A DNA stretch of 64,000 nucleotides from an uncultured Clostridia bacterium (GTDB taxonomy: Bacteria > Bacillota > Clostridia > Lachnospirales > Lachnospiraceae): assembly GCA_947058385.1 (NCBI GenBank), contig CAMSGQ010000015.1, positions 7,692 to 71,691 of the forward strand, given 5' to 3'. The notes below the pieces were generated by a model. That model did no database searches. It saw only the letters and a program-made list of their open reading frames with translations, and had not been told where the DNA came from. Positions 9,084 to 49,736 of this stretch are shown piece by piece. Both the position numbers and the translations under genes were made by a program. Numbering within the stretch: the stretch's first letter is position 1; the number at the start of each line of letters is the position of its first letter.

Positions 9084-9794
9084 TTATTTTAACCAGCCAG
9101 CCTTTTTCTCTGTTAATAACGCTTTAAAAATTTCAATATCTTCCACAGTTGTTAATTTAATATTTTTTTCTGATCCCAATGACAAATATAATTTTTCTCC
9201 AAGCTCTACAAACATTGTACAAGTCGCAATCGAAGAAAAAATTCCCTGTTTTAATGCCTCTTTATGTGCCCAAACTAGTTTCCCCAATGTAGCCGCCTGT
9301 GGAGTCTGTGTTCTTTTCAAATTATCACGTGGTACTTGTACCTCTGATGTACTACCATCTTTCGTCTTTAACATCGCTTCTGCACAGGGAATAACAGAAA
9401 CAGCATTTCCAAACTGTGTACATACCCTAATACAATCCGAAATAATCTCTTCTGACACCATTGGCCGAATCGCATCATGAATTAAAACAATATCTTCCTC
9501 TTTATGAATTTTTTTTATCTCATTAATCCCATTTCGAATTGACTCTTGTCCATTTTCTCCACCAGATACAATGCTTTCTAATTTATCTATTCCAAACTGC
9601 TTACAATAAGCTCTTAGTATTTCATGCCATCCTTCCAAGCATACTACTACAATACTATCAATATTGGGATGTTTTTGAAATGCTTCTAAAGTATAAATAA
9701 TCACTGGTTTATCATAGACATTTAAAAACTGTTTTGGAATATCTTGGTGCATCCGTTGCCCAGAACCTCCTGCAATTACTAACGCAATATTCAT
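9084..9794 (-). CDS. IspD/TarI-family cytidylyltransferase (likely ribitol-5-phosphate cytidylyltransferase)
   Basis: 236 aa, N-term LVIAGGSGQRM...PKQF typical of IspD/TarI. Confidence 0.75.
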   Translation of the reverse strand: MNIALVIAGGSGQRMHQDIPKQFLNVYDKPVIIYTLEAFQKHPNIDSIVVVCLEGWHEILRAYCKQFGIDKLESIVSGGENGQESIRNGINEIKKIHKEEDIVLIHDAIRPMVSEEIISDCIRVCTQFGNAVSVIPCAEAMLKTKDGSTSEVQVPRDNLKRTQTPQAATLGKLVWAHKEALKQGIFSSIATCTMFVELGEKLYLSLGSEKNIKLTTVEDIEIFKALLTEKKAGWLK

Positions 9795-39842: not shown

Positions 39843-41336
39843 TTAGGAAATTCCATAAAGCTTCTTATATTTTTCTTTTAAGTAGATAATAAAATAATCT
39901 GGATTAAACTCTTCTTTTGTTGTTTCTTTTAAAATTTCCCGTGCTTCCTTAAATGCCCCATATTGATGCACATGTTGATGTAAAAATTCTCGAATTGCTT
40001 TTATATTTCCTTTCGAAAGCTCCTCTTCCACATTGATTTCTTTCTGCATCTTTGCATAAATCTGAGCAGCAAATGCATTTCCAAGTGCATAAGATGGAAA
40101 ATATCCCATACTTCCCATAGACCAATGTACATCCTGCAAAATTCCAACGGTATCATTTTCTGGTGTGATTCCTAGATATTCTTGATATTTTTCATTCCAA
40201 AGCCGAGGTAATTCTTCTACTTCTACTTCCCCATTTATCATTAATTTTTCCAACTCATAGCGTACCATAATATGCAAACAGTAAGTCAATTCATCTGCCT
40301 CTGTCCGAATTTCATCTGCCTGAACTCGATTGATTGCTGCTACAAACTGATCGAGTGAAACTTCTTTTAATTGTTTTGGAAACAATTCTACTAACTTCCC
40401 ATAAATAGGTACCCAAAATGCTCGGCTTCTTCCAATCATATTTTCCATAAACCGAGACTGGGATTCATGTATTCCACAAGAAGCTCCCTCTCCAAGTATC
40501 GTTTGTGTATATTGATCCTCTATTCCCTGCTCATAAATTGCATGTCCACTCTCATGGATAGTAGAAAAAATCGCACTTGCTAAATTTTCTTCATAATAAT
40601 GTGTTGTAATTCGCACATCATGATTATGCCAAGAAGTTGTAAATGGATGTTCACTCTCCGCCATAACGCCACGGTTAAAATTAAATCCAATATACTCCGC
40701 TAAAAAGCGATTAAATTCTTTTTGTTTTTCAATTTCATACTTTTGATGTAAAAAGGAATCTTCTATCTGTGGTTGTTTTTGAATCTTTTGAAGAAGAGGA
40801 ATTAACTCCTTTTTTAATTTATCAAAAAAAATATCCAATACCTCTACTGGAAATGTTTCCTCATAATCATCTAACAGTACATCATATCCTGTCTGTTCTT
40901 TGGTTGAACCATAAGAGGCAAACTTTTTGTTATATGCAATAATCTCCTTTAAATAAGGTGCAAAGATTGAAAAATCATTCTCTTTTTTCGCTTTCTGCCA
41001 TGCTTTTTGTGACTTTGACTGTAATTCCGCATAAGCTCGCTTCTCCTCTTTTGGAATTGCTTCTGTCTTTCTTAAACTCTTTTTGATTTTACGAATAATT
41101 GCCTGTTCTTTTTCTTCTCCTTCTTTTGCTTCAAATTTTTCTAAAATCTTCTTTACCTCTGGATTGGTAAGACAAAGAAAATCTTCCTCCGCTAAAATAC
41201 CAATTACTTTTGCTGTCTGTTCTCCTGCTTCTTTTGGTGCAAGGGTCGCATTATCCCAATCAAATAAAGCAAGCGCTGTCTGTAATGCCATATGTTTTTC
41301 TAAATAAGGCATCAATTGTTCAAAAATTTGACTCAT
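39843..41336 (-). CDS. carboxypeptidase, M32 (Taq) family
   Basis: 497 aa; HESGHAIYEQG zinc motif. Confidence 0.85.
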   Translation of the reverse strand: MSQIFEQLMPYLEKHMALQTALALFDWDNATLAPKEAGEQTAKVIGILAEEDFLCLTNPEVKKILEKFEAKEGEEKEQAIIRKIKKSLRKTEAIPKEEKRAYAELQSKSQKAWQKAKKENDFSIFAPYLKEIIAYNKKFASYGSTKEQTGYDVLLDDYEETFPVEVLDIFFDKLKKELIPLLQKIQKQPQIEDSFLHQKYEIEKQKEFNRFLAEYIGFNFNRGVMAESEHPFTTSWHNHDVRITTHYYEENLASAIFSTIHESGHAIYEQGIEDQYTQTILGEGASCGIHESQSRFMENMIGRSRAFWVPIYGKLVELFPKQLKEVSLDQFVAAINRVQADEIRTEADELTYCLHIMVRYELEKLMINGEVEVEELPRLWNEKYQEYLGITPENDTVGILQDVHWSMGSMGYFPSYALGNAFAAQIYAKMQKEINVEEELSKGNIKAIREFLHQHVHQYGAFKEAREILKETTKEEFNPDYFIIYLKEKYKKLYGIS

Positions 41337-41418
41337 TCTAAACTCCCTTCCTTTTAGGAAAACCGGAAAACAACTCTCTGTTTTCCGGTTTCCTATCTTT
41401 TTAAAAATATTTCCTATT

Positions 41419-41904
41419 TTAAAAGTATTTCTTACTTCCCCAAAGATTATTCCTCTTTAAGTCTAAATATTCATTATATGCTTTTTCTAAAATCTGCTTT
41501 TCATTCGAAAATTTTAATAAGTGGTAAGCCTCATGAAATTTATAATAACCCGAATCCATGAAAAACTCTTCCCGCTGCGGTTTGCTGTAATAGCTGTCTG
41601 ACATCATTAGATACCAGTGTACATCTTTCTCTACCATATCAGCAGGAGTCGCAAACGTATATTGGCTTTTTCCTACATATTTGATTATATTTCCCTTTAC
41701 GCCTGATTCCTCTAATACTTCACGTAGTGCAGTTTCTTTATACTCTTCTCCAGCTTCTACAGTTCCTTTTGGTAATACCCATCCCTCATATTTATTCTTA
41801 TAGTTTTTATATAAGAGTAAAATCTTACCTCGAAAAATAACCACACCGCCACAGCTCGTTGCTTCAATCATTGCAATTCCTCCTGTCCTTTGGTGTGAAA
41901 CCAA
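41419..41904 (-). CDS. NUDIX hydrolase
   Basis: Nudix box GWVLPKGTVEAGEEYKETALREVLEESG. Confidence 0.8.
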   Translation of the reverse strand: MVSHQRTGGIAMIEATSCGGVVIFRGKILLLYKNYKNKYEGWVLPKGTVEAGEEYKETALREVLEESGVKGNIIKYVGKSQYTFATPADMVEKDVHWYLMMSDSYYSKPQREEFFMDSGYYKFHEAYHLLKFSNEKQILEKAYNEYLDLKRNNLWGSKKYF

Positions 41905-41968
41905 AACTAGGATAAGTATACCTCAATTGACAGAATTATGCAAGTCAATCCAAAAATATGTGAAAAAT

Positions 41969-44746
41969 TTACGTATCCATTTCGGATTCTTTTAATGTAT
42001 ACCATACTTTAAAAATTTCTCCTGCTATCGAAGCTGCCTTTTTACTTCCAGCTCCTCCCTCCTCTACAATTACACTTACTACAATTTCTGGTTTTTCTAC
42101 TGAAGAAAATCCCACAAACCAAGAGTGCGCTTCTTTCTTTGGATCCCATTCTGCCGTACCTGTCTTTCCGGCTACTGAATATTTTTCCAATCTAGCACGA
42201 TATCCTGTTCCTTCTGTTACACACAAAGTCATCCATTCCGTCAGCTGTTTTGCTTCCTGTTCACTAATGGGTACTTGATAACGTTGAGGGCGATATTTTT
42301 TTATGGTATTCCCATGTACATCTGTAATTCGATCTACTAAATAAGGTTTCATCATAACACCACCATTTGCAATGGTTGCTGTTATCATTGCCTGATGAAG
42401 TGGTGTTATCTCCACCGTACCCTGTCCGATTGCAGTTTGCATAATCTCCCATTCAGGAGAACTATCCTTTAATTGAAATTGACTTGATACATATGATAAT
42501 GCAACTGGTAAATCTTGATTAAACAAAAATTTTTCACACAGTTTTGAAAACTGTTCTATCGAAAGCTCTAAACCAATTTTTGCAAAAGCACCATTGCAAG
42601 ACTTCGCAAAAGCCGTTTCAAATGAAATAGTTCCATGTACAGTTTGGTTTGAACATTGAATTGTTGCTCCATTATGTTGGTAAGAACCAGTACAATCATA
42701 AGAAAACTTTGAAATCTGATCTGGAAACTCTTTTAAATATTCTAATGCAGTTAAAATCTTAAATGTAGAACCAGGTGGATAACGTCCTTGCGTAGCACGG
42801 TTTAATAGATAGCTCTGTTCTCCATCTGAATCATCTGCAAGTGATTCCCAGATAGCTTCTATTTCGTTTGGATTATAATCTGGCTTCGAAACCATAGCAA
42901 GAATTTTTCCAGTCGATGGCTCCATCACTACAATAGCCCCTTTTTGGCCTTCCAATTCCTCAGAAGCTGCTTTTTGAAGCGTATAATTTAAAGTCGTAAT
43001 CAGTTGATTTCCCTTATCTTTTTCCCCTCTTAATTCATGTCCTATTTTTTCATAAATAGGTTCATCTGATGTTAAAAGCTGAAAGTTATAGATTTTTTCC
43101 AATCCATCTTTTCCACTCTGTGAATACCCTACTACATGGGAAAATAAATTCTCAAATGGATAAACTCTTTGCTCTGTTCCATCCTCCTTTGTTTCTGTCT
43201 TTGCAATCACTTTTCCATCTGCCGTAAGAATTGTACCACGTACCACCTTTTTTGCGAAATCCTCCTGCCGCAGATTATAAGGATTGTTGATAACATCTTT
43301 ACTCTCTGCAAAAAGAAAATAACCAAGATAACACGGCATTAATAGAAATAGTCCTGTAAATAGATACATAACAAAATAAAGTTCTTGATTCCAACTTGTT
43401 TTTCCCGATAAAATTCTTAGTCTTTCATCATCTGTATGTTTTTGTTCTTCCTCCCCTTTTCCTAGCCCTAGTTCTAATTCTGAAATATATAGTCCCTGTA
43501 CAATTCCATACATTACAAGTGAACTTAGCATTGAACTTCCGCCACAACTTACAAATGGAATTGTTACCCCCGTAGATGGAATTAGTTTCATTGCTCCGCC
43601 AATTGTTAAAAATACCTGTATTCCATACTCACAAGCAAGCCCTAACGCCATATAACGATAAAAATGACTGTGCATCTGAATCGCTATATTTAAAATCAAA
43701 AGCAGACATCCTAAACAGATAAAAATAACACAGACTGCAACCAACCCGCCCAATTCTTCTGCAATTGCTGAGAAGAAAAAGTCCTCTTCTACAACTGGTA
43801 TCTGGGAAGGAGAACCTTTATTTAATCCTACTCCTAACCAGCCTCCTGTTCCGATTGCAAAAAGAGACTGTGCAATCTGATACCCTTTACTTTCAATTAC
43901 AGACCAGGGATCAATCCACGCTGTTACACGAGTCTGAATATGGGAAAATGTCTGATAAGCCAGATAGGAAGCACCTGCTCCCGCTAATAACCCGCCAAAT
44001 AAATAAATCGGTCTTTTTGTAGCTACATAGACCATAAATACAAATACCAATGAAAAAATCAATGCACTTCCCAAATCAGTCGATGCCACTAAAATTAAAA
44101 TATGCACAGCTGCTAAAATTCCTGTCTTTATTACCTGCTTCCAATCATCTCTTACTTCAAACATAGCAGCAATAAAAAATACATAACTAATTTTTACAAA
44201 TTCAGAAGGTTGAAAAGAAACACCAAGTAATGCAATCGAAAGTTTAGCTCCATAACTGGTTTCTGCCAAAATCAAAACTACCAAAAGTAACACTACCCCA
44301 GCAATTCCATAAAGCCATGCAAACTTTCTTAACGATTTCCACTTTTTCATAATATATGGAATCGCTGCCATAAAAAGTGTTCCTAATGCTAAAATCAAAA
44401 ACTGTCGGTTTGCTTTTCCAATAGAAAGTCTTGCCAGCACAAGAAACCCTATCACCATTAGCATACAAACTAAACTAGTTAATAATCTAGAAGCTGCTGG
44501 ATAAGCAATATGAAATAATGTTTCTAACAAAATTAAATAAACTAATTCCGCCCCATATAAAAGGATTAGATTCTCATTTCCTGTAGAAAGAAATAAAGAA
44601 AAAAACCCAAGAAAATGTACCATAAACAGGCAAATATTTAATATTGTTACTTTTCTTTTTTTATAATAAGCAAAAGAATAATACGTATATACCATCATCA
44701 GCAAAATAATCAGATATTTTGACAGCTCTTGCATCAGACTAACCAT
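41969..44746 (-). CDS. single-chain fusion of SEDS glycosyltransferase (FtsW/RodA) and class B penicillin-binding protein transpeptidase
   Basis: 925 aa. N-half polytopic with SEDS motifs FQPSEFVK and ASTDLGSA. C-half has pedestal domain plus transpeptidase motifs STFK (SxxK), SCN (SxN), KTGTAE (KTG). Confidence 0.8.
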   Translation of the reverse strand: MVSLMQELSKYLIILLMMVYTYYSFAYYKKRKVTILNICLFMVHFLGFFSLFLSTGNENLILLYGAELVYLILLETLFHIAYPAASRLLTSLVCMLMVIGFLVLARLSIGKANRQFLILALGTLFMAAIPYIMKKWKSLRKFAWLYGIAGVVLLLVVLILAETSYGAKLSIALLGVSFQPSEFVKISYVFFIAAMFEVRDDWKQVIKTGILAAVHILILVASTDLGSALIFSLVFVFMVYVATKRPIYLFGGLLAGAGASYLAYQTFSHIQTRVTAWIDPWSVIESKGYQIAQSLFAIGTGGWLGVGLNKGSPSQIPVVEEDFFFSAIAEELGGLVAVCVIFICLGCLLLILNIAIQMHSHFYRYMALGLACEYGIQVFLTIGGAMKLIPSTGVTIPFVSCGGSSMLSSLVMYGIVQGLYISELELGLGKGEEEQKHTDDERLRILSGKTSWNQELYFVMYLFTGLFLLMPCYLGYFLFAESKDVINNPYNLRQEDFAKKVVRGTILTADGKVIAKTETKEDGTEQRVYPFENLFSHVVGYSQSGKDGLEKIYNFQLLTSDEPIYEKIGHELRGEKDKGNQLITTLNYTLQKAASEELEGQKGAIVVMEPSTGKILAMVSKPDYNPNEIEAIWESLADDSDGEQSYLLNRATQGRYPPGSTFKILTALEYLKEFPDQISKFSYDCTGSYQHNGATIQCSNQTVHGTISFETAFAKSCNGAFAKIGLELSIEQFSKLCEKFLFNQDLPVALSYVSSQFQLKDSSPEWEIMQTAIGQGTVEITPLHQAMITATIANGGVMMKPYLVDRITDVHGNTIKKYRPQRYQVPISEQEAKQLTEWMTLCVTEGTGYRARLEKYSVAGKTGTAEWDPKKEAHSWFVGFSSVEKPEIVVSVIVEEGGAGSKKAASIAGEIFKVWYTLKESEMDT

Positions 44747-44761
44747 ACTACTACCTCCCTC

Positions 44762-47013
44762 TTACTCAATCCCCCGTTTCAAATGCCCTCTTGTAAATGC
44801 AAAAGGTTCCTCTGAAAATAAAATACCCTTTTGATACGCCTGAATAAATTTTGTAAGAATCTCTGTTACCTCTTTTACAGATTCCAGTGTAAAATCCAGC
44901 CGTATTGCACTAGGTAAAATTCGATCCACTTCTTTTTTTACACTTAAAAGAGAAAGTGGTTTACAATTATATATTTTATTATAGCAAAATTTACACCTAT
45001 TTTTTATTGTAAATTCATTGTTATAACGATCGGTTAAAAGAAGCGTTCCAGATTTGCAAGAACATCCTTTTAAATTTTTCATCGTACATTGTGCTGATAC
45101 CATCATTGGTAAGTAGCCATATACCATTAACTCACTTCTTTTATCTGCAATTTGTGCCAGCTCTCTTCCATTTAACTCTAAAGGAAGGGTTATTTGTTCT
45201 ACATTCCACTGTTTTTCAAATACCTGCATACTTTCCGAATTAAATCCATAAAGAGAAGAATCCAATCGAATCGGTATTTCTTTTTCTTTTCTTTTTTCTT
45301 TTAGAAAAGAAAATTCATCTAAATTTCTTGCTACAAATCCATCAATTCCTGCCTGTAACAATGATTGATATTCTTGTTCTAACCAATTCTTTGTCGTATC
45401 TCGAAAAATAGGTGGAAGCATATAATAAAACTTTTGATTTGGAAACCGTTTTTTATAACTTTTTACATCATCTGTTGAAAATTCACTTGCATCTAAATAA
45501 ATCGAAGAAATTTCTGTAAATTTTGTTACTGCTTCTACATATTCTTTTTTTTCTAAATAGACATTTATTTTATATTGACAAGCAGATTTTAATTCTCTTT
45601 TTTTATTTTTTATTTCCTTTAAATAAATCTCTTTTTGACTTTCTTCTCGATAAAATGGTTGCAGATATGCTGCCGTTAGTTGTTCTAATGCTGTTCTTCG
45701 CAATTCATTTAATTCTGTTATAGAAATAAAACTCTTTCCATCTGTTTCTATTAAAAGATTAGAAAAAGAAAATGGCGTTTTTCTGGTTTTTTCTATTTGT
45801 TTTGCAATATTTTCTTTTGTCATAGGCTGCTTTTCTGCCAAAGCAACCTCTTTTCCAAATACAGTAACACTTTGGTTTTGAAATTGAACAGTAAGTTTTG
45901 CCTTTTCTTTCGAATATATTCTTATTGTTCCATCAATTGCTTCCTTTGGCTCTACAGAGAGAAATTCTTTTCGAACTGCTTCAAAAAGTTCTTGATTTTT
46001 CTCCTCACTTTCTGCTTCTTTTCCCTGAAGAAACATCATATCTTTTCCGTTCTTTTCTATATAATATCCTTTTGTAAATCCACCCCGATTATAAAGATCA
46101 TATAAAATTTTCTTATCCTTATCAGATACAGCAAATCCCTCTCTTCCATGCTCAATATAAATATCTAGATATTTGCGATAAACACTGACTACACCTGCTG
46201 TATATTCCGGCTTTTTCATCCTGCCTTCAATTTTAAGAGAATAGACACCTGCTTCTAAAATATCTGGTAAAAGTTCTATACTGCACAAATCCTTTGGACT
46301 TAATTGATAAGGTTCCTCCTTACGGTTCCATCTTTTTTTCTGTTCTTTCTCTTTTACCTGATAGGGAAGACGGCAAGGCTGTGCACAACGTCCTCGATTT
46401 CCACTTCTTCCTCCTGCCAAACTACTAAATAAACACTGTCCCGAATAGCAGTAACAAAGTGCTCCATGTATAAAACTTTCTATTTCTAAAGATTCTAACC
46501 CTTCTGTATGATGAATCTTTTGGATCTCCTCCAAGGAAAGTTCTCTTGCAGTTACAATTCGTACAGCTCCCATTTCTTTTAAAAGTTTTGCTCCATAAGG
46601 CCCCATCAAAGTCATCTGTGTACTAGCATGAATAGGAAGCTTGGGAAAATACTTTTGAATAAAAGAAAATACTCCAATATCCTGCACAATTACTGCATCT
46701 AATCCCTGTTGATAAAAAGGAAGTAAATAAGAATATAGTTTTTCCTGCATCTCTTGTTCTTTTAATAATGTATTAACTGTTAAATATAATTTTCTACCAT
46801 GAAGATGAACAAAATCAATTGCAGATTTTAAGGTTTCTGTATCTAGGTTGTTGGCATATGCTCTTGCACCAAACAGATTTCCCCCTAAATAAACCGCATC
46901 AGCACCTGCCAAAACAGCCGCCACCATCGTTTCATAGGAGCCAGCTGGTGCTAACAATTCTGCTTTTTTTGCATAACATGCCTGATACCTTTGACTTTTA
47001 TATAACTCCATTC
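44762..47013 (-). CDS. U32-family peptidase (collagenase-like) with C-terminal DUF3656-like region
   Basis: LLAPAGSYE...GADAVYLGGNLFGARA; start set at MELYKS (RBS GAGG) because a hairpin occupies the longer N-terminal extension. Confidence 0.8.
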
Positions 47014-47048
47014 TTTTTTCCTCAATCTTTTCTTTTTTCTCTATAAAG

Positions 47049-47084
47049 AATGTCATGTCTTCTTTCTGGGAATGACATGACATT
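47049..47084 (-). promoter_or_regulatory. 11-bp-stem hairpin between zapA stop and U32 peptidase start (attenuator/terminator-like)
   Basis: aatgtcatgtc-14 nt-gacatgacatt. Confidence 0.35.
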
Positions 47085-47092
47085 TTCTATCC

Positions 47093-47557
47093 TTATTTAT
47101 CCTGATTTTCATTCTTATCCTGCCCATCTTTGCTTCTTTTTTCATTTTGTACTTTTCTAGTATGTGTTTTCTCTGCTTCTAAACGAATAATCGTTTTTTC
47201 CTGTTCGCTTACTGTCTTTCGAAGAGCTTCTAATTCCAGCTCTTCCTCCTCCATTCGAAGTTTTAGTCCTACTAATTCATGTTTTAAATTCGAAATCTCC
47301 TTATTGCGCTCTTCTAATTCTAAACTTGCTGTATCTGCATTTTTCTTTGCTTTATAATAATCATCTGCTACATTGAGATACATCAGGATATTCTGCACCT
47401 CTCGGTTCTGACGTTTATATCCCTCTGCCATTCGTACCTCAGAAAGTTTTGCATTAATATATGCAGCAACTTTATTTAGGTATTCGGGGTCTTCGTATCC
47501 GCTTAATGTATATACTTTTCCGTCAATAACCACCTGTACATTATTCTTTAGTGCCAT
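47093..47557 (-). CDS. zapA: cell division protein ZapA
   Basis: VQVVIDGKVYTLSGYEDPEYLNKVAAYINAKL ZapA fold, C-terminal coiled coil. Confidence 0.6.
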   Translation of the reverse strand: MALKNNVQVVIDGKVYTLSGYEDPEYLNKVAAYINAKLSEVRMAEGYKRQNREVQNILMYLNVADDYYKAKKNADTASLELEERNKEISNLKHELVGLKLRMEEEELELEALRKTVSEQEKTIIRLEAEKTHTRKVQNEKRSKDGQDKNENQDK

Positions 47558-47693
47558 CCAATATCCTCTCCCTGCATTATTCCTTTGTTATCATTAAACT
47601 TTATTATAATCAATTTCAGAAAAAAGCACAAGCATTTTATGAGAGGATTTTGTTTACCAAGATTCTCCAGTTTATAGTTCTATTCTGTTTTTT

Positions 47694-48686
47694 CTATTTT
47701 TTTAGTCCAAGATGTTGATAAGCCAAATCTGTTACAATTCTTCCACGAGGCGTCCTCTGTAAAAATCCATTTTGAATAAGATACGGTTCAATTACTTCTT
47801 CTAATGTTCCAGCATCTTCTCCTAAAGCTGCTGCCAATGTATCTAATCCGCAAGGACCTCCTGTAAATTTTTGAATTAAAGTAATTAAAAACATCCGATC
47901 GCTATTATCTAGTCCATATTTATCCACTTCCAGCAAATCCAACGCAAAATTTGCCACCTCTTCTGTAATAACTCCATGATATTTTACCTGTGCAAAATCT
48001 CGCACCCGCTTTAAAAGCCGATTTGCCAATCGAGGTGTGCCACGACTTCTTCTTGCCATCTCCATTGCACCCGCAGCCTCAATTTCTACTTGCAATACCC
48101 TAGCAGAACGCATTAAAATTGTCTGCAATTCCTGCGGTGTATAAAATTCTAATCGATGAATCACGCCAAATCGATCCCGAAGCGGTGCCGTTAAAAGTCC
48201 AGCTCTGGTTGTAGCACCTACCAAAGTAAATTTAGGTAAATCTAATCGGATGGATCGTGCTGTTGCGCCTTTTCCAATCACAATATCAATTGCAAAATCC
48301 TCCATTGCCGGATAAAGCACTTCTTCTACTTGTCGATTTAACCGATGAATTTCATCAATAAATAATACATCTTTTTCTTGAAGATTATTTAAAATCGCCG
48401 CCAGCTCTCCTGGTTTTTCAATCGCAGGTCCAGAAGTAATCTTCATATTGGTTCCCATCTCATTTGCGATAATTCCAGCTAAAGTTGTTTTTCCAAGTCC
48501 AGGAGGACCATAAAATAATACATGGTCTAGTGGTTCTTTCCGGCTTTTCGCTGCTTCAATATATACTTTTAAATTTTCCTTTGCTTTTGCTTGACCAATA
48601 TAATCTGCCAAAAGCTGTGGCCTTAGATGATTTTCCACACTATTATCTTCTTCTGTTCGCTCTGTTGTTATCATTCTCTTTGCCAT
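47694..48686 (-). CDS. ruvB: Holliday junction DNA helicase RuvB
   Basis: [14 protein letters not shown] Walker A, 330 aa. Confidence 0.95.
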
Positions 48687-48703
48687 ATAGAAATCCTTTC
48701 ATC

Positions 48704-49309
48704 CTACCGACTCATCTTTTTTAAAGAAGCCTTTAACAAAGTTTCCACTGTCATATCCTCTGTTACTGTTACAGCACGAACGGCACGAAGTGCATCAGTT
48801 GGACTATATCCCAAAGCAGTCAGTGCTTGCACTGTCTCATTTTGTATCTCTTTTGTCTGTCCAACATCTTTTGCTTCTTTTGCCAACTTTTGTTCAAATA
48901 CCTCTTCTAATTTTAATTTATCCTTTAACTCAATTACCATCTTTTGTGCTGTTTTACTGCCAATTCCTGGTGCTTTTGCAATCGTTTTTGCATCTCCTGC
49001 CAACACTGCAAACCGTAAATCATCTACAGAAATTGTAGAAAGAATAGCCAACGCTCCTTTTGGGCCAATTCCACTTACTCCCAAAAGAAGCCGAAATACT
49101 GTGATATCTTCTTTTTCTAAAAATCCATATAAATCTAAAATATCTTCTCTGATATAGAGATAGGTAAAAATCTGTATCTCACTTCCTATTGCTGGAAGCA
49201 TAGTAACCACAGTAGCAGGTACCTTTATCAAATAACCGATTCCATGATTTTCCACCACAACAAAATCTATTCCTACTTCTTTTAACTCACCTTTTATAAA
49301 AGAAATCAT
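48704..49309 (-). CDS. ruvA: Holliday junction DNA helicase RuvA
   Basis: MISFIKGEL...GIGYLIKVP, HhH motifs, ~200 aa, upstream of ruvB. Confidence 0.9.
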   Translation of the reverse strand: MISFIKGELKEVGIDFVVVENHGIGYLIKVPATVVTMLPAIGSEIQIFTYLYIREDILDLYGFLEKEDITVFRLLLGVSGIGPKGALAILSTISVDDLRFAVLAGDAKTIAKAPGIGSKTAQKMVIELKDKLKLEEVFEQKLAKEAKDVGQTKEIQNETVQALTALGYSPTDALRAVRAVTVTEDMTVETLLKASLKKMSR

Positions 49310-49487
49310 TGAAACTCTCCTTATGCTCTTTTTAATCCAATCTATTAAAAGTAATCGAACATAGATACGATTGTAACAGATCTTCCTCTATCTGGCAAGC
49401 ATTTTAATACCCAGTTCCATTGCTCTATCTATCATTTTATTTCATAAACCAAAGCCCTCCTTTTTTCCTTATTATTTGTCTTATTTA

Positions 49488-49736
49488 TCACCAAGTAACT
49501 TTTTGATCTTTATGTGTATAATTTTTCATTTGTATTATTAAATCTGATAAAATTTTTTTATAATATTCCTTTTGTTTTTCGTTTAGTTGATTTGTCTTTA
49601 AACATTTTTCAAAAACTTTTTGAAATTCTTTTAAATTTTCCTGTGCTGCATCTTTATAATTATTAGATTGATTTATCTGTATCTTCTGCAAAATTGTTTC
49701 TAATTCAGAATTTTTCTTATTAAAAAATGGAAACAC
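49488..49736 (-). CDS. hypothetical small protein
   Basis: 82 aa, K/Q-rich, no recognised motif. Confidence 0.3.
   Translation of the reverse strand: MFPFFNKKNSELETILQKIQINQSNNYKDAAQENLKEFQKVFEKCLKTNQLNEKQKEYYKKILSDLIIQMKNYTHKDQKVTW

Follow-up and report, generated by a model that had tools for sequence, protein, structure and literature searches.

A natural SEDS-class B PBP fusion gene at a conserved Lachnospiraceae locus that occurs in fused and split forms

Results

Genes and domains at the locus

The 64-kb window of DNA analyzed here carries an open reading frame at positions 41969..44746 (like all other features given with coordinates below, on the minus strand) that encodes a fused SEDS-bPBP peptidoglycan synthase candidate of 925 amino acids plus a stop codon. 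The ORF list and a script agree that this frame begins with ATG, has one terminal stop and contains no internal stops. Pfam searches with the 925-residue protein return FTSW_RODA_SPOVE at residues 91-417 (2.6e-55), PBP_dimer_2 at 503-581 (3.2e-11) and Transpeptidase at 603-912 (1.2e-62), all three exceeding their gathering thresholds, such that PF01098, PF21922 and PF00905 follow one another in a single unbroken ORF of the ~900-950 aa size class. A preliminary description of this DNA had proposed one chain that joins a SEDS protein to a class B transpeptidase, and the single ORF with its three colinear domains confirms this proposal. A chance origin is far excluded, since a 925-codon ORF in DNA of 33-37% GC carries three significant colinear domains. 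The AlphaFold2 (AF2) model of the synthase (mean pLDDT 87.2, pTM 0.72) has an arrangement of 3+10+1 helices, with disorder confined to the linker between the two enzymes.

Inspection of the 60 nt upstream of the gene reveals a strong Shine-Dalgarno sequence, GAGGGAGG (44754..44761), located 7 nt 5′ of the synthase ATG. The stop codon of the preceding gene, which encodes a U32-family peptidase-like protein of 773 aa (44762..47083), lies at 44762-44764, leaving only 15 nt before the synthase start codon and making it likely that the two genes are co-transcribed. Another 9 nt separate the U32 gene from zapA (47093..47557; 154 aa; PF05164, 4e-17), and a NUDIX hydrolase gene lies downstream of the synthase (41419..41904, with public gene calls starting at the ATG at 41871 to give 150 aa). 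The order ruvA-ruvB-zapA-U32-[SEDS/bPBP]-NUDIX is conserved across Lachnospiraceae, as judged from 80 representative loci, where U32 is found at 74, zapA at 69 and NUDIX at 59. Neither the NUDIX nor the U32 neighbor receives an NCBIfam equivalog name.

As had been stated earlier, zapA and the U32 gene are both directly upstream of the synthase on the same strand. The description of this region as a zapA division cluster is correct on the presence of zapA but claims too much for the context, as the cluster is not of the dcw type: zapA is the sole division gene of the ruvA-ruvB-zapA-U32-synthase-NUDIX array, and no dcw genes occur within the 64-kb window. Likewise, tblastn searches of the window with both halves of the protein match only the synthase itself, with no second SEDS or PBP gene. 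Scans of positions 41300-49500 for promoters and terminators give counts no higher than in shuffled sequences. The sole notable promoter-like site, a 10/12 match to an extended -10 element, is upstream of ruvA.

The SEDS half and its N-terminal extension

The protein begins with an extension of 86 residues (44489..44746), recognized by hydropathy and by AF2 (pLDDT 83-96 in 10-residue blocks). Helices are predicted at residues 2-30, 33-55 and 59-81, ahead of SEDS TM1, with a KKRK loop (29-32) between the first two. This three-helix extension is present at 74 of the 80 loci, in fused and split forms alike, and is missing from the two Coriobacteriales loci.

The SEDS (FtsW/RodA/SpoVE) glycosyltransferase core with its 10 transmembrane helices occupies residues 87-420 (43487..44488), as delimited by PF01098, structure-sequence alignment and the AF2 helices. 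The PF01098 match reaches 188.3 bits (cutoff 26.4) and covers profile positions 6-348 of 356. AF2 places the core helices at 87-107, 109-135, 143-160, 180-198, 202-221, 225-243, 246-266, 334-357, 361-385 and 403-434, and loop elements at 268-331 form the large extracellular loop between TM7 and TM8. This half aligns end to end with the RodA proteins of E. coli (8tj3_B) and T. thermophilus (6bar_A), and also over its full length with solved FtsW.

The acidic and basic residues essential to SEDS enzymes are all in place: E182 and K185 in the PSEFVK motif (residues 180-185; 44192..44209), D224 in the DLGSA motif (residues 224-228; 44063..44077), and D322 in the EEDFFF segment of extracellular loop 4 (codon at 43781..43783). 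The last of these corresponds in the alignment to D262 of E. coli RodA, and replacing D262 by alanine abolishes polymerase activity (PMC6207328). P180 is invariant along with E182 and K185, as are L225, G226 and A228 along with D224.

The linker and the class B PBP half

A linker predicted to be cytoplasmic (residues 421-455; 43382..43486) connects the two enzymes, and is recognized by variable alignment columns, low pLDDT and purine content. It is hydrophilic, being rich in E, K, D and R, and it varies among homologues in both length and sequence. AF2 confidence drops below 50 at residues 434-439 and 446-448, and no other 60-nt stretch of the gene is as rich in purines as the linker DNA (80% purine vs a gene mean of 54%). 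A bPBP-type transmembrane helix follows at residues 456-486 (43289..43381), supported by hydropathy and AF2, and would return the chain to the outside. The model places this helix at 454-486, with blocks over 461-480 at pLDDT 96 and 93.

Beyond the membrane, a juxtamembrane NNPYN motif and a short PBPA-type pedestal (PBP_dimer_2) span residues 487-602 (42941..43288), where PF21922 scores 43.8 bits (cutoff 27) and matches to M. tuberculosis PBPA, 4MNR and 4JBF begin at residue ~500. The canonical long pedestal, PF03717 (PBP_dimer), reaches only 16.7 bits vs 24.4, with no stretch passing. Thus, the earlier view that the PBP retains its own transmembrane segment and pedestal as a linker is correct for the bPBP helix, whereas the pedestal that is kept is the short PBPA type.

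The D,D-transpeptidase domain (residues 603-912; 42011..42940) matches PF00905 at 212 bits, and the periplasmic half of the synthase superposes on the Coriobacteriia structures 4MNR and 4JBF with TM-scores of 0.88-0.90 normalized to those entries. Its three motifs are STFK (SxxK; 42758..42769), which provides the nucleophile Ser660 and Lys663, SCN (SxN; residues 716-718; 42593..42601) and KTG (residues 861-863; 42158..42166). In this regard the protein has the makings of a class B PBP: an SxxK/SxN/KTG transpeptidase, a single transmembrane helix followed by a non-catalytic pedestal (PF21922, 503-581), and no GT51 family among the Pfam matches of the 925-aa protein.

Together, the five motifs that had been reported as intact are at their expected sites (PSEFVK 180, DLGSA 224, STFK 660, SCN 716 and KTG 861). 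Catalytic residues of both halves are invariant in sets of 16 and 63 fused homologues (42-83% identity), the larger set retaining E182, K185, D224, D322, S660, K663, S716, N718, K861, T862 and G863 throughout.

The scores against NCBIfam equivalog models fall short in every instance: 205 vs 337.5 for FtsW (TIGR02614), 172.4 vs 336.7 for RodA (TIGR02210), 152 vs 448.8 for SpoVE (TIGR02615), and 286.6 vs 455 for PBP2/MrdA (TIGR03423, pbp2_mrdA), of which only profile positions 184-592 are matched. With all of these cutoffs missed, the synthase cannot be placed with any of the named pairs that serve division, elongation or sporulation.

Fused and split forms in Lachnospiraceae

A comparison with related genomes, as suggested in the preliminary description, reveals that both forms occur at this locus. 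Nine of the 80 representative loci are fused and 71 are split, with the split ORFs usually overlapping. The best 120 protein homologues are all full-length and classed as fused (118 with all three Pfam domains and two without PF21922), but these matches were chosen for full length, which biases the sampling of fused and split forms. Fused homologues are found down to 42% identity. Cultured examples exist of each state, with L. phytofermentans carrying a fused gene (one ORF of 974 aa) and Lacrimispora amygdalina a split one (441 + ~490 aa).

The split pairs, among them those of Lacrimispora amygdalina DSM 12857 and of Hominiventricola, Jingyaoa and Roseburia MAGs, are orthologous to the 925-aa synthase. 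They have in common with it the ruvA-ruvB-zapA-U32-...-NUDIX synteny, the N-terminal extension and the PBPA-type pedestal, and are 45-52% identical to it over the best segment (up to 65% over the SEDS half). Where the synthase has one ORF they have two, which in most cases overlap in different frames.

Junctions were analyzed in full for 69 of the split loci, and take the form either of an overlap or of an in-frame stop followed by ATG after 3-6 nt. At 45 of these loci the bPBP gene is in a different frame from the SEDS gene and the two share an obligatory overlap of 11-140 nt; at one more the overlap is 4 nt, and four loci differ from the fusion by an in-frame stop alone. Relative to the SEDS gene, the bPBP frame is +1 in 58 of the 69, and the overlap tract is purine-rich with few stops. 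Fused and split states interleave among relatives: clustering at 65-70% identity gives 3-6 clusters that contain both, and a neighbor-joining tree requires 19 changes by parsimony, implying at least about six independent transitions between the two states, a number made approximate by a tree that lacks support values, by the selection of full-length hits and by possible frameshift errors in MAGs.

Discussion

A probable one-chain bifunctional synthase

We conclude, with a probability of roughly 0.88, that the 925-aa gene is a genuine one-chain bifunctional peptidoglycan synthase, representing the fused form of a SEDS-bPBP pair at a conserved Lachnospiraceae locus. Both enzymatic activities are inferred from the sequence. 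Specifically, the SEDS module, with its 10 transmembrane helices and three lineage-specific ones, would polymerize lipid II into glycan at the outer face of the membrane by using the constellation of E182/K185, D224 and D322. The flexible linker of ~35 residues, predicted to be cytoplasmic, would then lead into transmembrane helix 456-486, which, by analogy with RodA-PBP2, is assumed to pack on the SEDS core at TM8/9. Outside the membrane, the short PBPA-type pedestal would position the transpeptidase, such that Ser660 could cross-link the nascent strand. We infer that the rationale for fusion is stoichiometry: one chain would hard-wire a 1:1 ratio and co-assembly, which split relatives presumably achieve through tightly overlapping and possibly translationally coupled genes. 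In this reading, the fusion originated when the barrier of frame or stop was lost within the purine-rich junction, a tract with few stops in which every frame encodes hydrophilic residues, and events of this kind have recurred in the family.

Several other explanations for this gene must be weighed. With two ORFs present at 71 of the 80 representative loci, and with a low-complexity, purine-rich junction that is a plausible site for indel errors, a spurious indel in sequencing or assembly might have joined two adjacent genes. This reading is effectively refuted by the distribution of the fused form. The identical, intact 925-aa protein is found on 23 contigs, and the eight displayed among these each derive from a separate sequencing run or sample, so the stop or frameshift between the halves that had been named as grounds for rejecting the fusion is not borne out. 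Furthermore, the 90%-identity cluster of the synthase has 28 members, every relative whose SEDS half is 80% or more identical is fused (twelve entries from distinct 90% clusters), and a cultured isolate carries a fused orthologue too. A gene that is truly fused could nonetheless yield separate mature enzymes, either by cleavage of the linker after membrane insertion or through an internal start for the bPBP half. The disorder of the linker (pLDDT <50) and an SD-like element in its DNA, GGGGAGGAAG, are compatible with this idea, as is the legend to S5 Fig of one study, according to which a minor fraction of an engineered RodA-PBP2 fusion is cleaved on purification (PMC6207328). Internal initiation is rejected as a candidate, given that no in-frame ATG, GTG or TTG occurs from about residue 430 to M460, which itself lies inside the transmembrane helix, and that the ATGATG after the SD-like element opens a different frame, which meets a stop after five codons. 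Moreover, engineered fusions work as single chains and fused genes persist across deep divergence, to 42% identity, and we consider separation into two mature enzymes improbable.

Still less probable is that one half is a degenerate, non-catalytic scaffold, with the SEDS portion serving as a mere anchor or the PBP portion as a mere activator. Scores under all equivalog cutoffs and a pedestal that is truncated relative to canonical bPBPs could be read in this way. Against this, the invariance in 63 homologues extends to all catalytic residues of both halves, and the closest solved homologues, which are A. parvulum proteins, were deposited as acyl-enzyme complexes with many beta-lactams.

If the one-chain synthase is accepted, might split relatives make the same product by ribosomal frameshifting in the overlap tract? 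If true, then the gene in the window would be the hard-wired form of a product made by the whole family, with the locus acting as a regulated switch between the one-chain and two-chain forms. The codons before the SEDS stop, inspected in the +1-offset loci, have no slippery motif in common (of the CUU UGA kind, for example), and for this reason frameshifting is retained as no more than a low-probability reading, one we judge to be very unlikely.

Relation to known fusions

The statement that SEDS proteins and bPBPs are always encoded separately is too strong. Natural single-ORF SEDS-PBP fusions have already been noted (Nygaard 2023; PMC10449877), and a 2025 survey catalogues exactly the SEDS-PBPA_dimer-TPase domain order (PMC12516126). 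With natural fusions documented in both of these sources, the novelty implied earlier is unsupported. No Lachnospiraceae-specific report of such a fusion was found in the literature searched.

The nearest counterparts in architecture come from Coriobacteriia. One of these, as depicted in Fig 5B of the survey, is the 931-aa fused SEDS-PBPA_dimer-TPase protein of Senegalimassilia faecalis, whose gene is placed by the survey's account between Ser/Thr kinase and phosphatase genes (PMC12516126). Crystal structures of the periplasmic half of fusion-like proteins from this class date from 2013-14. The top PDB matches to the synthase, 4MNR and 4JBF, each represent the soluble half of a Coriobacteriia protein with close similarity to fusions of this kind, and belong to a series of Atopobium parvulum and Eggerthella lenta entries named 'peptidoglycan glycosyltransferase' (PDB 4JBF, 4N1X, 4RA7, 4MNR and others). 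Similarly, a fused ORF from Collinsella matches 4jbf at 2.7e-149, from just past its transmembrane helix. The Coriobacteriia fusions (913-939 aa at two loci) have the same order of SEDS domain, transmembrane helix, PBPA-type pedestal and transpeptidase as the synthase, but they are only 33-34% identical to it. In addition, the Coriobacteriales loci are without the ruvAB-zapA-U32 context, and the N-terminal extension there consists of two hydrophobic segments unrelated in sequence to the three-helix extension of the synthase. The PBPA of M. tuberculosis (3UN7, 3LO7) likewise has the short PF21922 pedestal and transpeptidase fold (E 4e-46, TM-score 0.84-0.86), at 28-29% identity. In actinobacteria the PBPA/RodA pair is encoded by two separate genes in a kinase/phosphatase operon.

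Engineered RodA-PBP2, SpoVE-SpoVD and FtsW-PBP3 fusions are functional (PMC10449877; PMC6207328). They have the same connectivity as the synthase, leading from the SEDS C-terminus through a short flexible cytoplasmic linker to the N-terminal transmembrane helix of the bPBP, and demonstrate that the two enzymes can be joined covalently and still retain their activities and work in vivo. They rely on synthetic GGGS or TSGSGSGS linkers and carry the canonical long pedestal with its MreC-binding head, whereas the synthase is natural and has a native linker of ~35 residues and a truncated pedestal. A natural single ORF with the SEDS domain N-terminal to the bPBP, as in the synthase, is also known from Rhodococcus jostii RHA1, whose 947-aa GTase-pedestal-TPase protein appears in Fig 7 of the survey (PMC12516126) and is cited as the natural example elsewhere (PMC10449877). 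By the survey's description, it differs from the synthase in its canonical PBP_dimer pedestal and mreB-flanked gene.

Cellular role and significance

The cellular role of the one-chain synthase is suggested by conflicting hints from sequence: linkage to zapA points to division, and the PBP2/PbpA-like character of the protein to elongation. One possibility is that the synthase is dedicated to the septum, as a partner of ZapA and the Z-ring, and is not an elongation-type or accessory enzyme of the RodA/PbpA kind. The location of zapA two genes upstream at 69 of 80 loci is in keeping with this possibility, as is the SEDS half, for which the highest scores are those of the FtsW model (205 bits vs 172 bits for RodA) and of solved FtsW. 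Conversely, the PBP half is most similar to the PBP2/MrdA and PBPA types, no dcw genes accompany the synthase in the window, and gene order is weak evidence in an operon that includes ruvAB and genes for a U32 protein and a NUDIX hydrolase. We therefore view a septal role as tentative and somewhat doubtful.

The architecture of this synthase is already known, and the new part is comparative, namely the existence of fused and split forms at one Lachnospiraceae locus. A natural covalent synthase offers independent evolutionary evidence that SEDS and bPBP act as a 1:1 unit through the geometry of the SEDS C-terminus and the bPBP transmembrane helix, and provides a native single-chain target for structures of the PBPA-type class with its short pedestal, which has received little study. 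Other natural fusions and engineered ones have already served to make both of these points. Likewise, the suggestion that the protein would be useful as a natural locked complex is reasonable, but engineered fusions already fill that role. In addition, the locus draws attention to a third, zapA-linked type of SEDS-bPBP pair in Firmicutes that are abundant in the gut. It holds fused, in-frame-stop and long-overlap forms side by side, and the cultured species L. phytofermentans (fused) and Lacrimispora amygdalina (split) make a convenient system in which to weigh the costs and benefits of fusion.

The synthase is encoded by a single uninterrupted open reading frame

The fused SEDS-bPBP synthase, which joins an FtsW/RodA/SpoVE-type glycosyltransferase (SEDS) to a class B transpeptidase (bPBP), appears in the ORF listing of the window as a single ATG-initiated ORF of 925 amino acids (41969-44746, minus strand). 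A script finds one terminal stop codon and zero internal stops, and the three Pfam matches, each well over threshold, are colinear: FTSW_RODA_SPOVE (residues 91-417, 2.6e-55), PBP_dimer_2, a short 'PBPA-type' pedestal (residues 503-581, 3.2e-11), and Transpeptidase (residues 603-912, 1.2e-62). These results bear out the uninterrupted ORF proposed in the preliminary description. Between the ATG and the stop codon at the end of the preceding gene there are 15 nt, and a strong ribosome-binding site (GAGGGAGG) is located 7 nt 5′ of it. Some public assemblies carry an 884-aa version starting at M42 (codon at window 44623), inside the second N-terminal helix. These calls look like gene-caller differences, because the 925-aa start has the strong ribosome-binding site.

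A hidden stop codon or frameshift between the two halves would make the fusion an artefact. The evidence speaks against this. A protein identical over all 925 aa occurs on 23 contigs, and the eight listed each derive from a different sequencing run or sample. Those contigs share the order ruvB-zapA-U32-synthase-NUDIX-M32-QueH wherever the contig is long enough. Moreover, the 90%-identity cluster of the synthase has 28 members, and relatives at least 80% identical over the SEDS half are all fused and fall into several distinct clusters. The identical copies, the cluster and the fused relatives together argue against an artefact.

Both halves retain their catalytic motifs. Specifically, the 925-aa sequence contains all five motifs that had been named from sequence alone, namely PSEFVK (residue 180), DLGSA (224), STFK (660), SCN (716) and KTG (861). 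In alignments of 16 and 63 fused homologues, with identities down to 42%, residues E182, K185, D224 and D322 of the SEDS half and S660, K663, S716, N718, K861, T862 and G863 of the bPBP half are invariant. A full-length alignment of the SEDS half with the solved RodA proteins of E. coli (8tj3_B) and T. thermophilus (6bar_A) places D322 (in EEDFFF) opposite D262 of E. coli RodA, whose D262A mutation abolishes polymerase activity (PMC6207328).

An AlphaFold2 model built with the 63 fused homologues is confident (mean pLDDT 87.2, pTM 0.72). It places three N-terminal helices (2-30, 33-55 and 59-81) before a SEDS core of ten helices, in which TM7 and TM8 are joined by the large loop. Next, a long helix (454-486) forms the predicted membrane anchor of the bPBP, followed by the pedestal and the transpeptidase. 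The bPBP has kept its own membrane helix and pedestal, as described earlier. The modelled topology is self-consistent in that the SEDS C-terminus is predicted to be cytoplasmic and the bPBP helix to run from inside to outside, the same connectivity as in engineered RodA-PBP2 fusions (SEDS C-terminus inside, then the bPBP helix outward).

Related loci share an N-terminal extension

Scanning a single genome for each species yields at least 598 related loci. The best 80 of these are nearly all from Lachnospiraceae, with two from Coriobacteriales, and represent genera including Roseburia, Blautia, Lacrimispora, Lachnoclostridium and Acetatifactor. A three-helix N-terminal extension (residues 1-86; window 44489-44746, minus strand), confidently modelled by AlphaFold2, is found at 74 of these best 80 loci, in fused and split Lachnospiraceae alike. 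The 16-sequence alignment shows no variation at residues Y20, Y64 and Y82, and in the 63-sequence alignment these three, together with Y11 and H44, almost never vary. In contrast, the Coriobacteriales have a different, shorter and unrelated segment in this place. This lineage-specific extension may be mildly new.

Similar fusions and their soluble halves are already known

The natural SEDS-bPBP fusion reported in the preliminary description is real and was correctly interpreted, but fusions of this kind are already known. Natural single-ORF SEDS-PBP fusions are acknowledged by Nygaard et al., and a 2025 survey (PMC12516126) counts 117 InterPro proteins with a bPBP TPase and a SEDS GTase in one chain. 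The same survey describes a 931-aa Senegalimassilia faecalis protein with a GTase + PBPA_dimer + TPase architecture, which is exactly that of the synthase. The fusion itself would not surprise a specialist.

The best PDB matches to the periplasmic half are 4MNR, a 'D,D-transpeptidase domain of peptidoglycan glycosyltransferase from Eggerthella lenta' released in 2013, and a set of Atopobium parvulum entries that includes 4JBF, 4N1X and 4RA7 (released 2013-14, several with beta-lactams). After these comes M. tuberculosis PBPA. TM-scores against 4MNR and the A. parvulum entries are 0.88-0.90. In Collinsella, a fused ORF has a match to 4jbf at 2.7e-149 that begins just past the ORF's membrane helix. 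Therefore, these crystal structures most likely represent the soluble parts of proteins that are naturally fused. Versions from Coriobacteriales differ from the synthase in being only 33-34% identical to it and in occurring without the ruvAB-zapA-U32 context.

Fused and split forms among relatives

Comparison with related genomes, as had been proposed, reveals both states. Only nine of the best 80 of at least 598 loci carry both halves in one ORF, and 71 carry them as two ORFs; 69 of the 78 loci in which both halves are near-complete are split. Cultured examples are Lachnoclostridium phytofermentans KNHs2131 (fused, one 974-aa ORF) and Lacrimispora amygdalina DSM 12857 (split, ORFs of 441 and about 490 aa).

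The ORFs of out-of-frame split loci usually overlap, and the bPBP frame is +1 relative to SEDS at 58 of the 69 split loci. At 46 of the 69, every possible bPBP start lies upstream of the SEDS stop codon, giving a minimum obligatory overlap of 4 nt at one locus and 11-140 nt at the other 45. Examples, in each locus's own coordinates, are L058 (~9337-9419), L036 (~9286-9431) and L050 (~9154-9293). Gene overlaps of this length are unusual for bacteria, and their presence in many split relatives may be mildly new. No slippery motif common to the split junctions was seen. At four of the 69 split loci the halves are in frame with a stop codon between them. At two of them only a TAG intervenes, and an in-frame ATG comes 6 nt after it at L003 (9321-9332) and 3 nt after it at L024 (8795-8803); judging by these junctions, a single point mutation would fuse either pair.

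With the full protein as query, a database search returns 988 relatives, of which the best 120 are full-length and fused. All three Pfam domains are present in 118 of these and two are without PF21922; the named organisms among the 120 are Agathobacter and Acetatifactor. A search with the SEDS half returns 5722 relatives, and among the newly listed matches nearly every one is a separate protein of 410-480 aa carrying the N-terminal extension. At 55-65% SEDS-half identity, 17 split and 6 fused clusters are mixed. Fused and split forms are likewise interleaved in a neighbour-joining tree of 197 sequences, with at least 19 parsimony changes in a tree that has no support values and draws on biased sampling. 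Single-linkage clustering gives a more conservative count: no cluster at 75% identity or more is mixed, whereas three contain both states at 70% and six at 65%. We conclude that these sequences record at least about six independent transitions between the two forms. Such recurrent fusion and fission at one conserved locus may be mildly new.

The linker (residues 421-455) varies in length and sequence in the homologue alignment, and its pLDDT falls below 50 only at residues 434-439 and 446-448. Its DNA includes the 60-nt stretch of the gene with the highest purine content (80% versus a mean of 54%). A purine tract is free of stop codons and encodes K/E/R/G whichever frame is read, and so a 1-nt indel or stop loss could interconvert the fused and split forms, which would be a simple cause of the transitions. 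We infer from the junction sequence that such a change would spare both enzymes. The linker DNA also holds a Shine-Dalgarno-like GGGGAGGAAG (window ~43426-43456, minus strand), and 15 nt after it lies a ATGATGAAAGAC that is out of frame and runs into a stop five codons on. At the equivalent place, the bPBP gene of split relatives begins ATGAAAG... The site and its out-of-frame ATGATGAAAGAC may be a vestige of a former bPBP start.

A working model for the synthase

On sequence evidence, a SEDS-bPBP pair that is conserved in Lachnospiraceae is present here in its fused form. Homology and the engineered fusions indicate that it is likely a single-chain, bifunctional peptidoglycan synthase in which the bPBP helix would pack on the SEDS core. 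The SEDS module would polymerise lipid II, and the tethered PBPA-type transpeptidase would cross-link its product. Fusion would fix a 1:1 stoichiometry that relatives presumably attain through tightly overlapping genes. As to its cellular role, the SEDS half scores best with FtsW and the gene is linked to zapA; the best scores of the bPBP half are with PBP2/MrdA and PBPA. The synthase reaches none of the NCBIfam equivalog cutoffs.

Gene neighbourhood

The same-strand neighbours are, in order, ruvA, ruvB, zapA, a gene for a 773-aa U32-family protein, the synthase gene, and genes for a NUDIX hydrolase and an M32 carboxypeptidase, then queH and polA. Gaps of just 9 and 15 nt across zapA, U32 and the synthase suggest that the three are co-transcribed, and a promoter and terminator scan around the synthase performs no better than on shuffled sequence. 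The synthase does lie downstream of zapA and U32, as first described, but 'division cluster' overstates this context because zapA is the sole division gene. Searches with both halves detect no second SEDS or PBP gene elsewhere in the 64-kb window.

Synteny around the synthase is strongly conserved. Among the best 80 of at least 598 loci, U32 is the most constant neighbour, directly upstream at 74, with zapA near the synthase at 69, ruvB at 64 and NUDIX downstream at 59. The U32-family protein (44762-47083, minus strand) has two U32 stretches and DUF3656, and its best NCBIfam match, the tRNA uridine(34) hydroxylase TrhP, scores 208, far below the cutoff of 534. The NUDIX gene (41419-41904, minus strand), which has no NCBIfam equivalog match, is 62-89% identical across the 59 Lachnospiraceae loci that carry it (at least 75% in 55), a strong conservation for a gene beside a cell-wall synthase, whereas the adjoining synthase and U32 genes are only about 28-67% identical among the best 80 loci. 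On the scale of the window, the minus strand holds 47 of the 51 ORFs that reach 150 aa, and all 2-kb bins have a negative GC skew (-0.20 to -0.39); the window as a whole appears to belong to one replichore, its genes co-oriented with replication.
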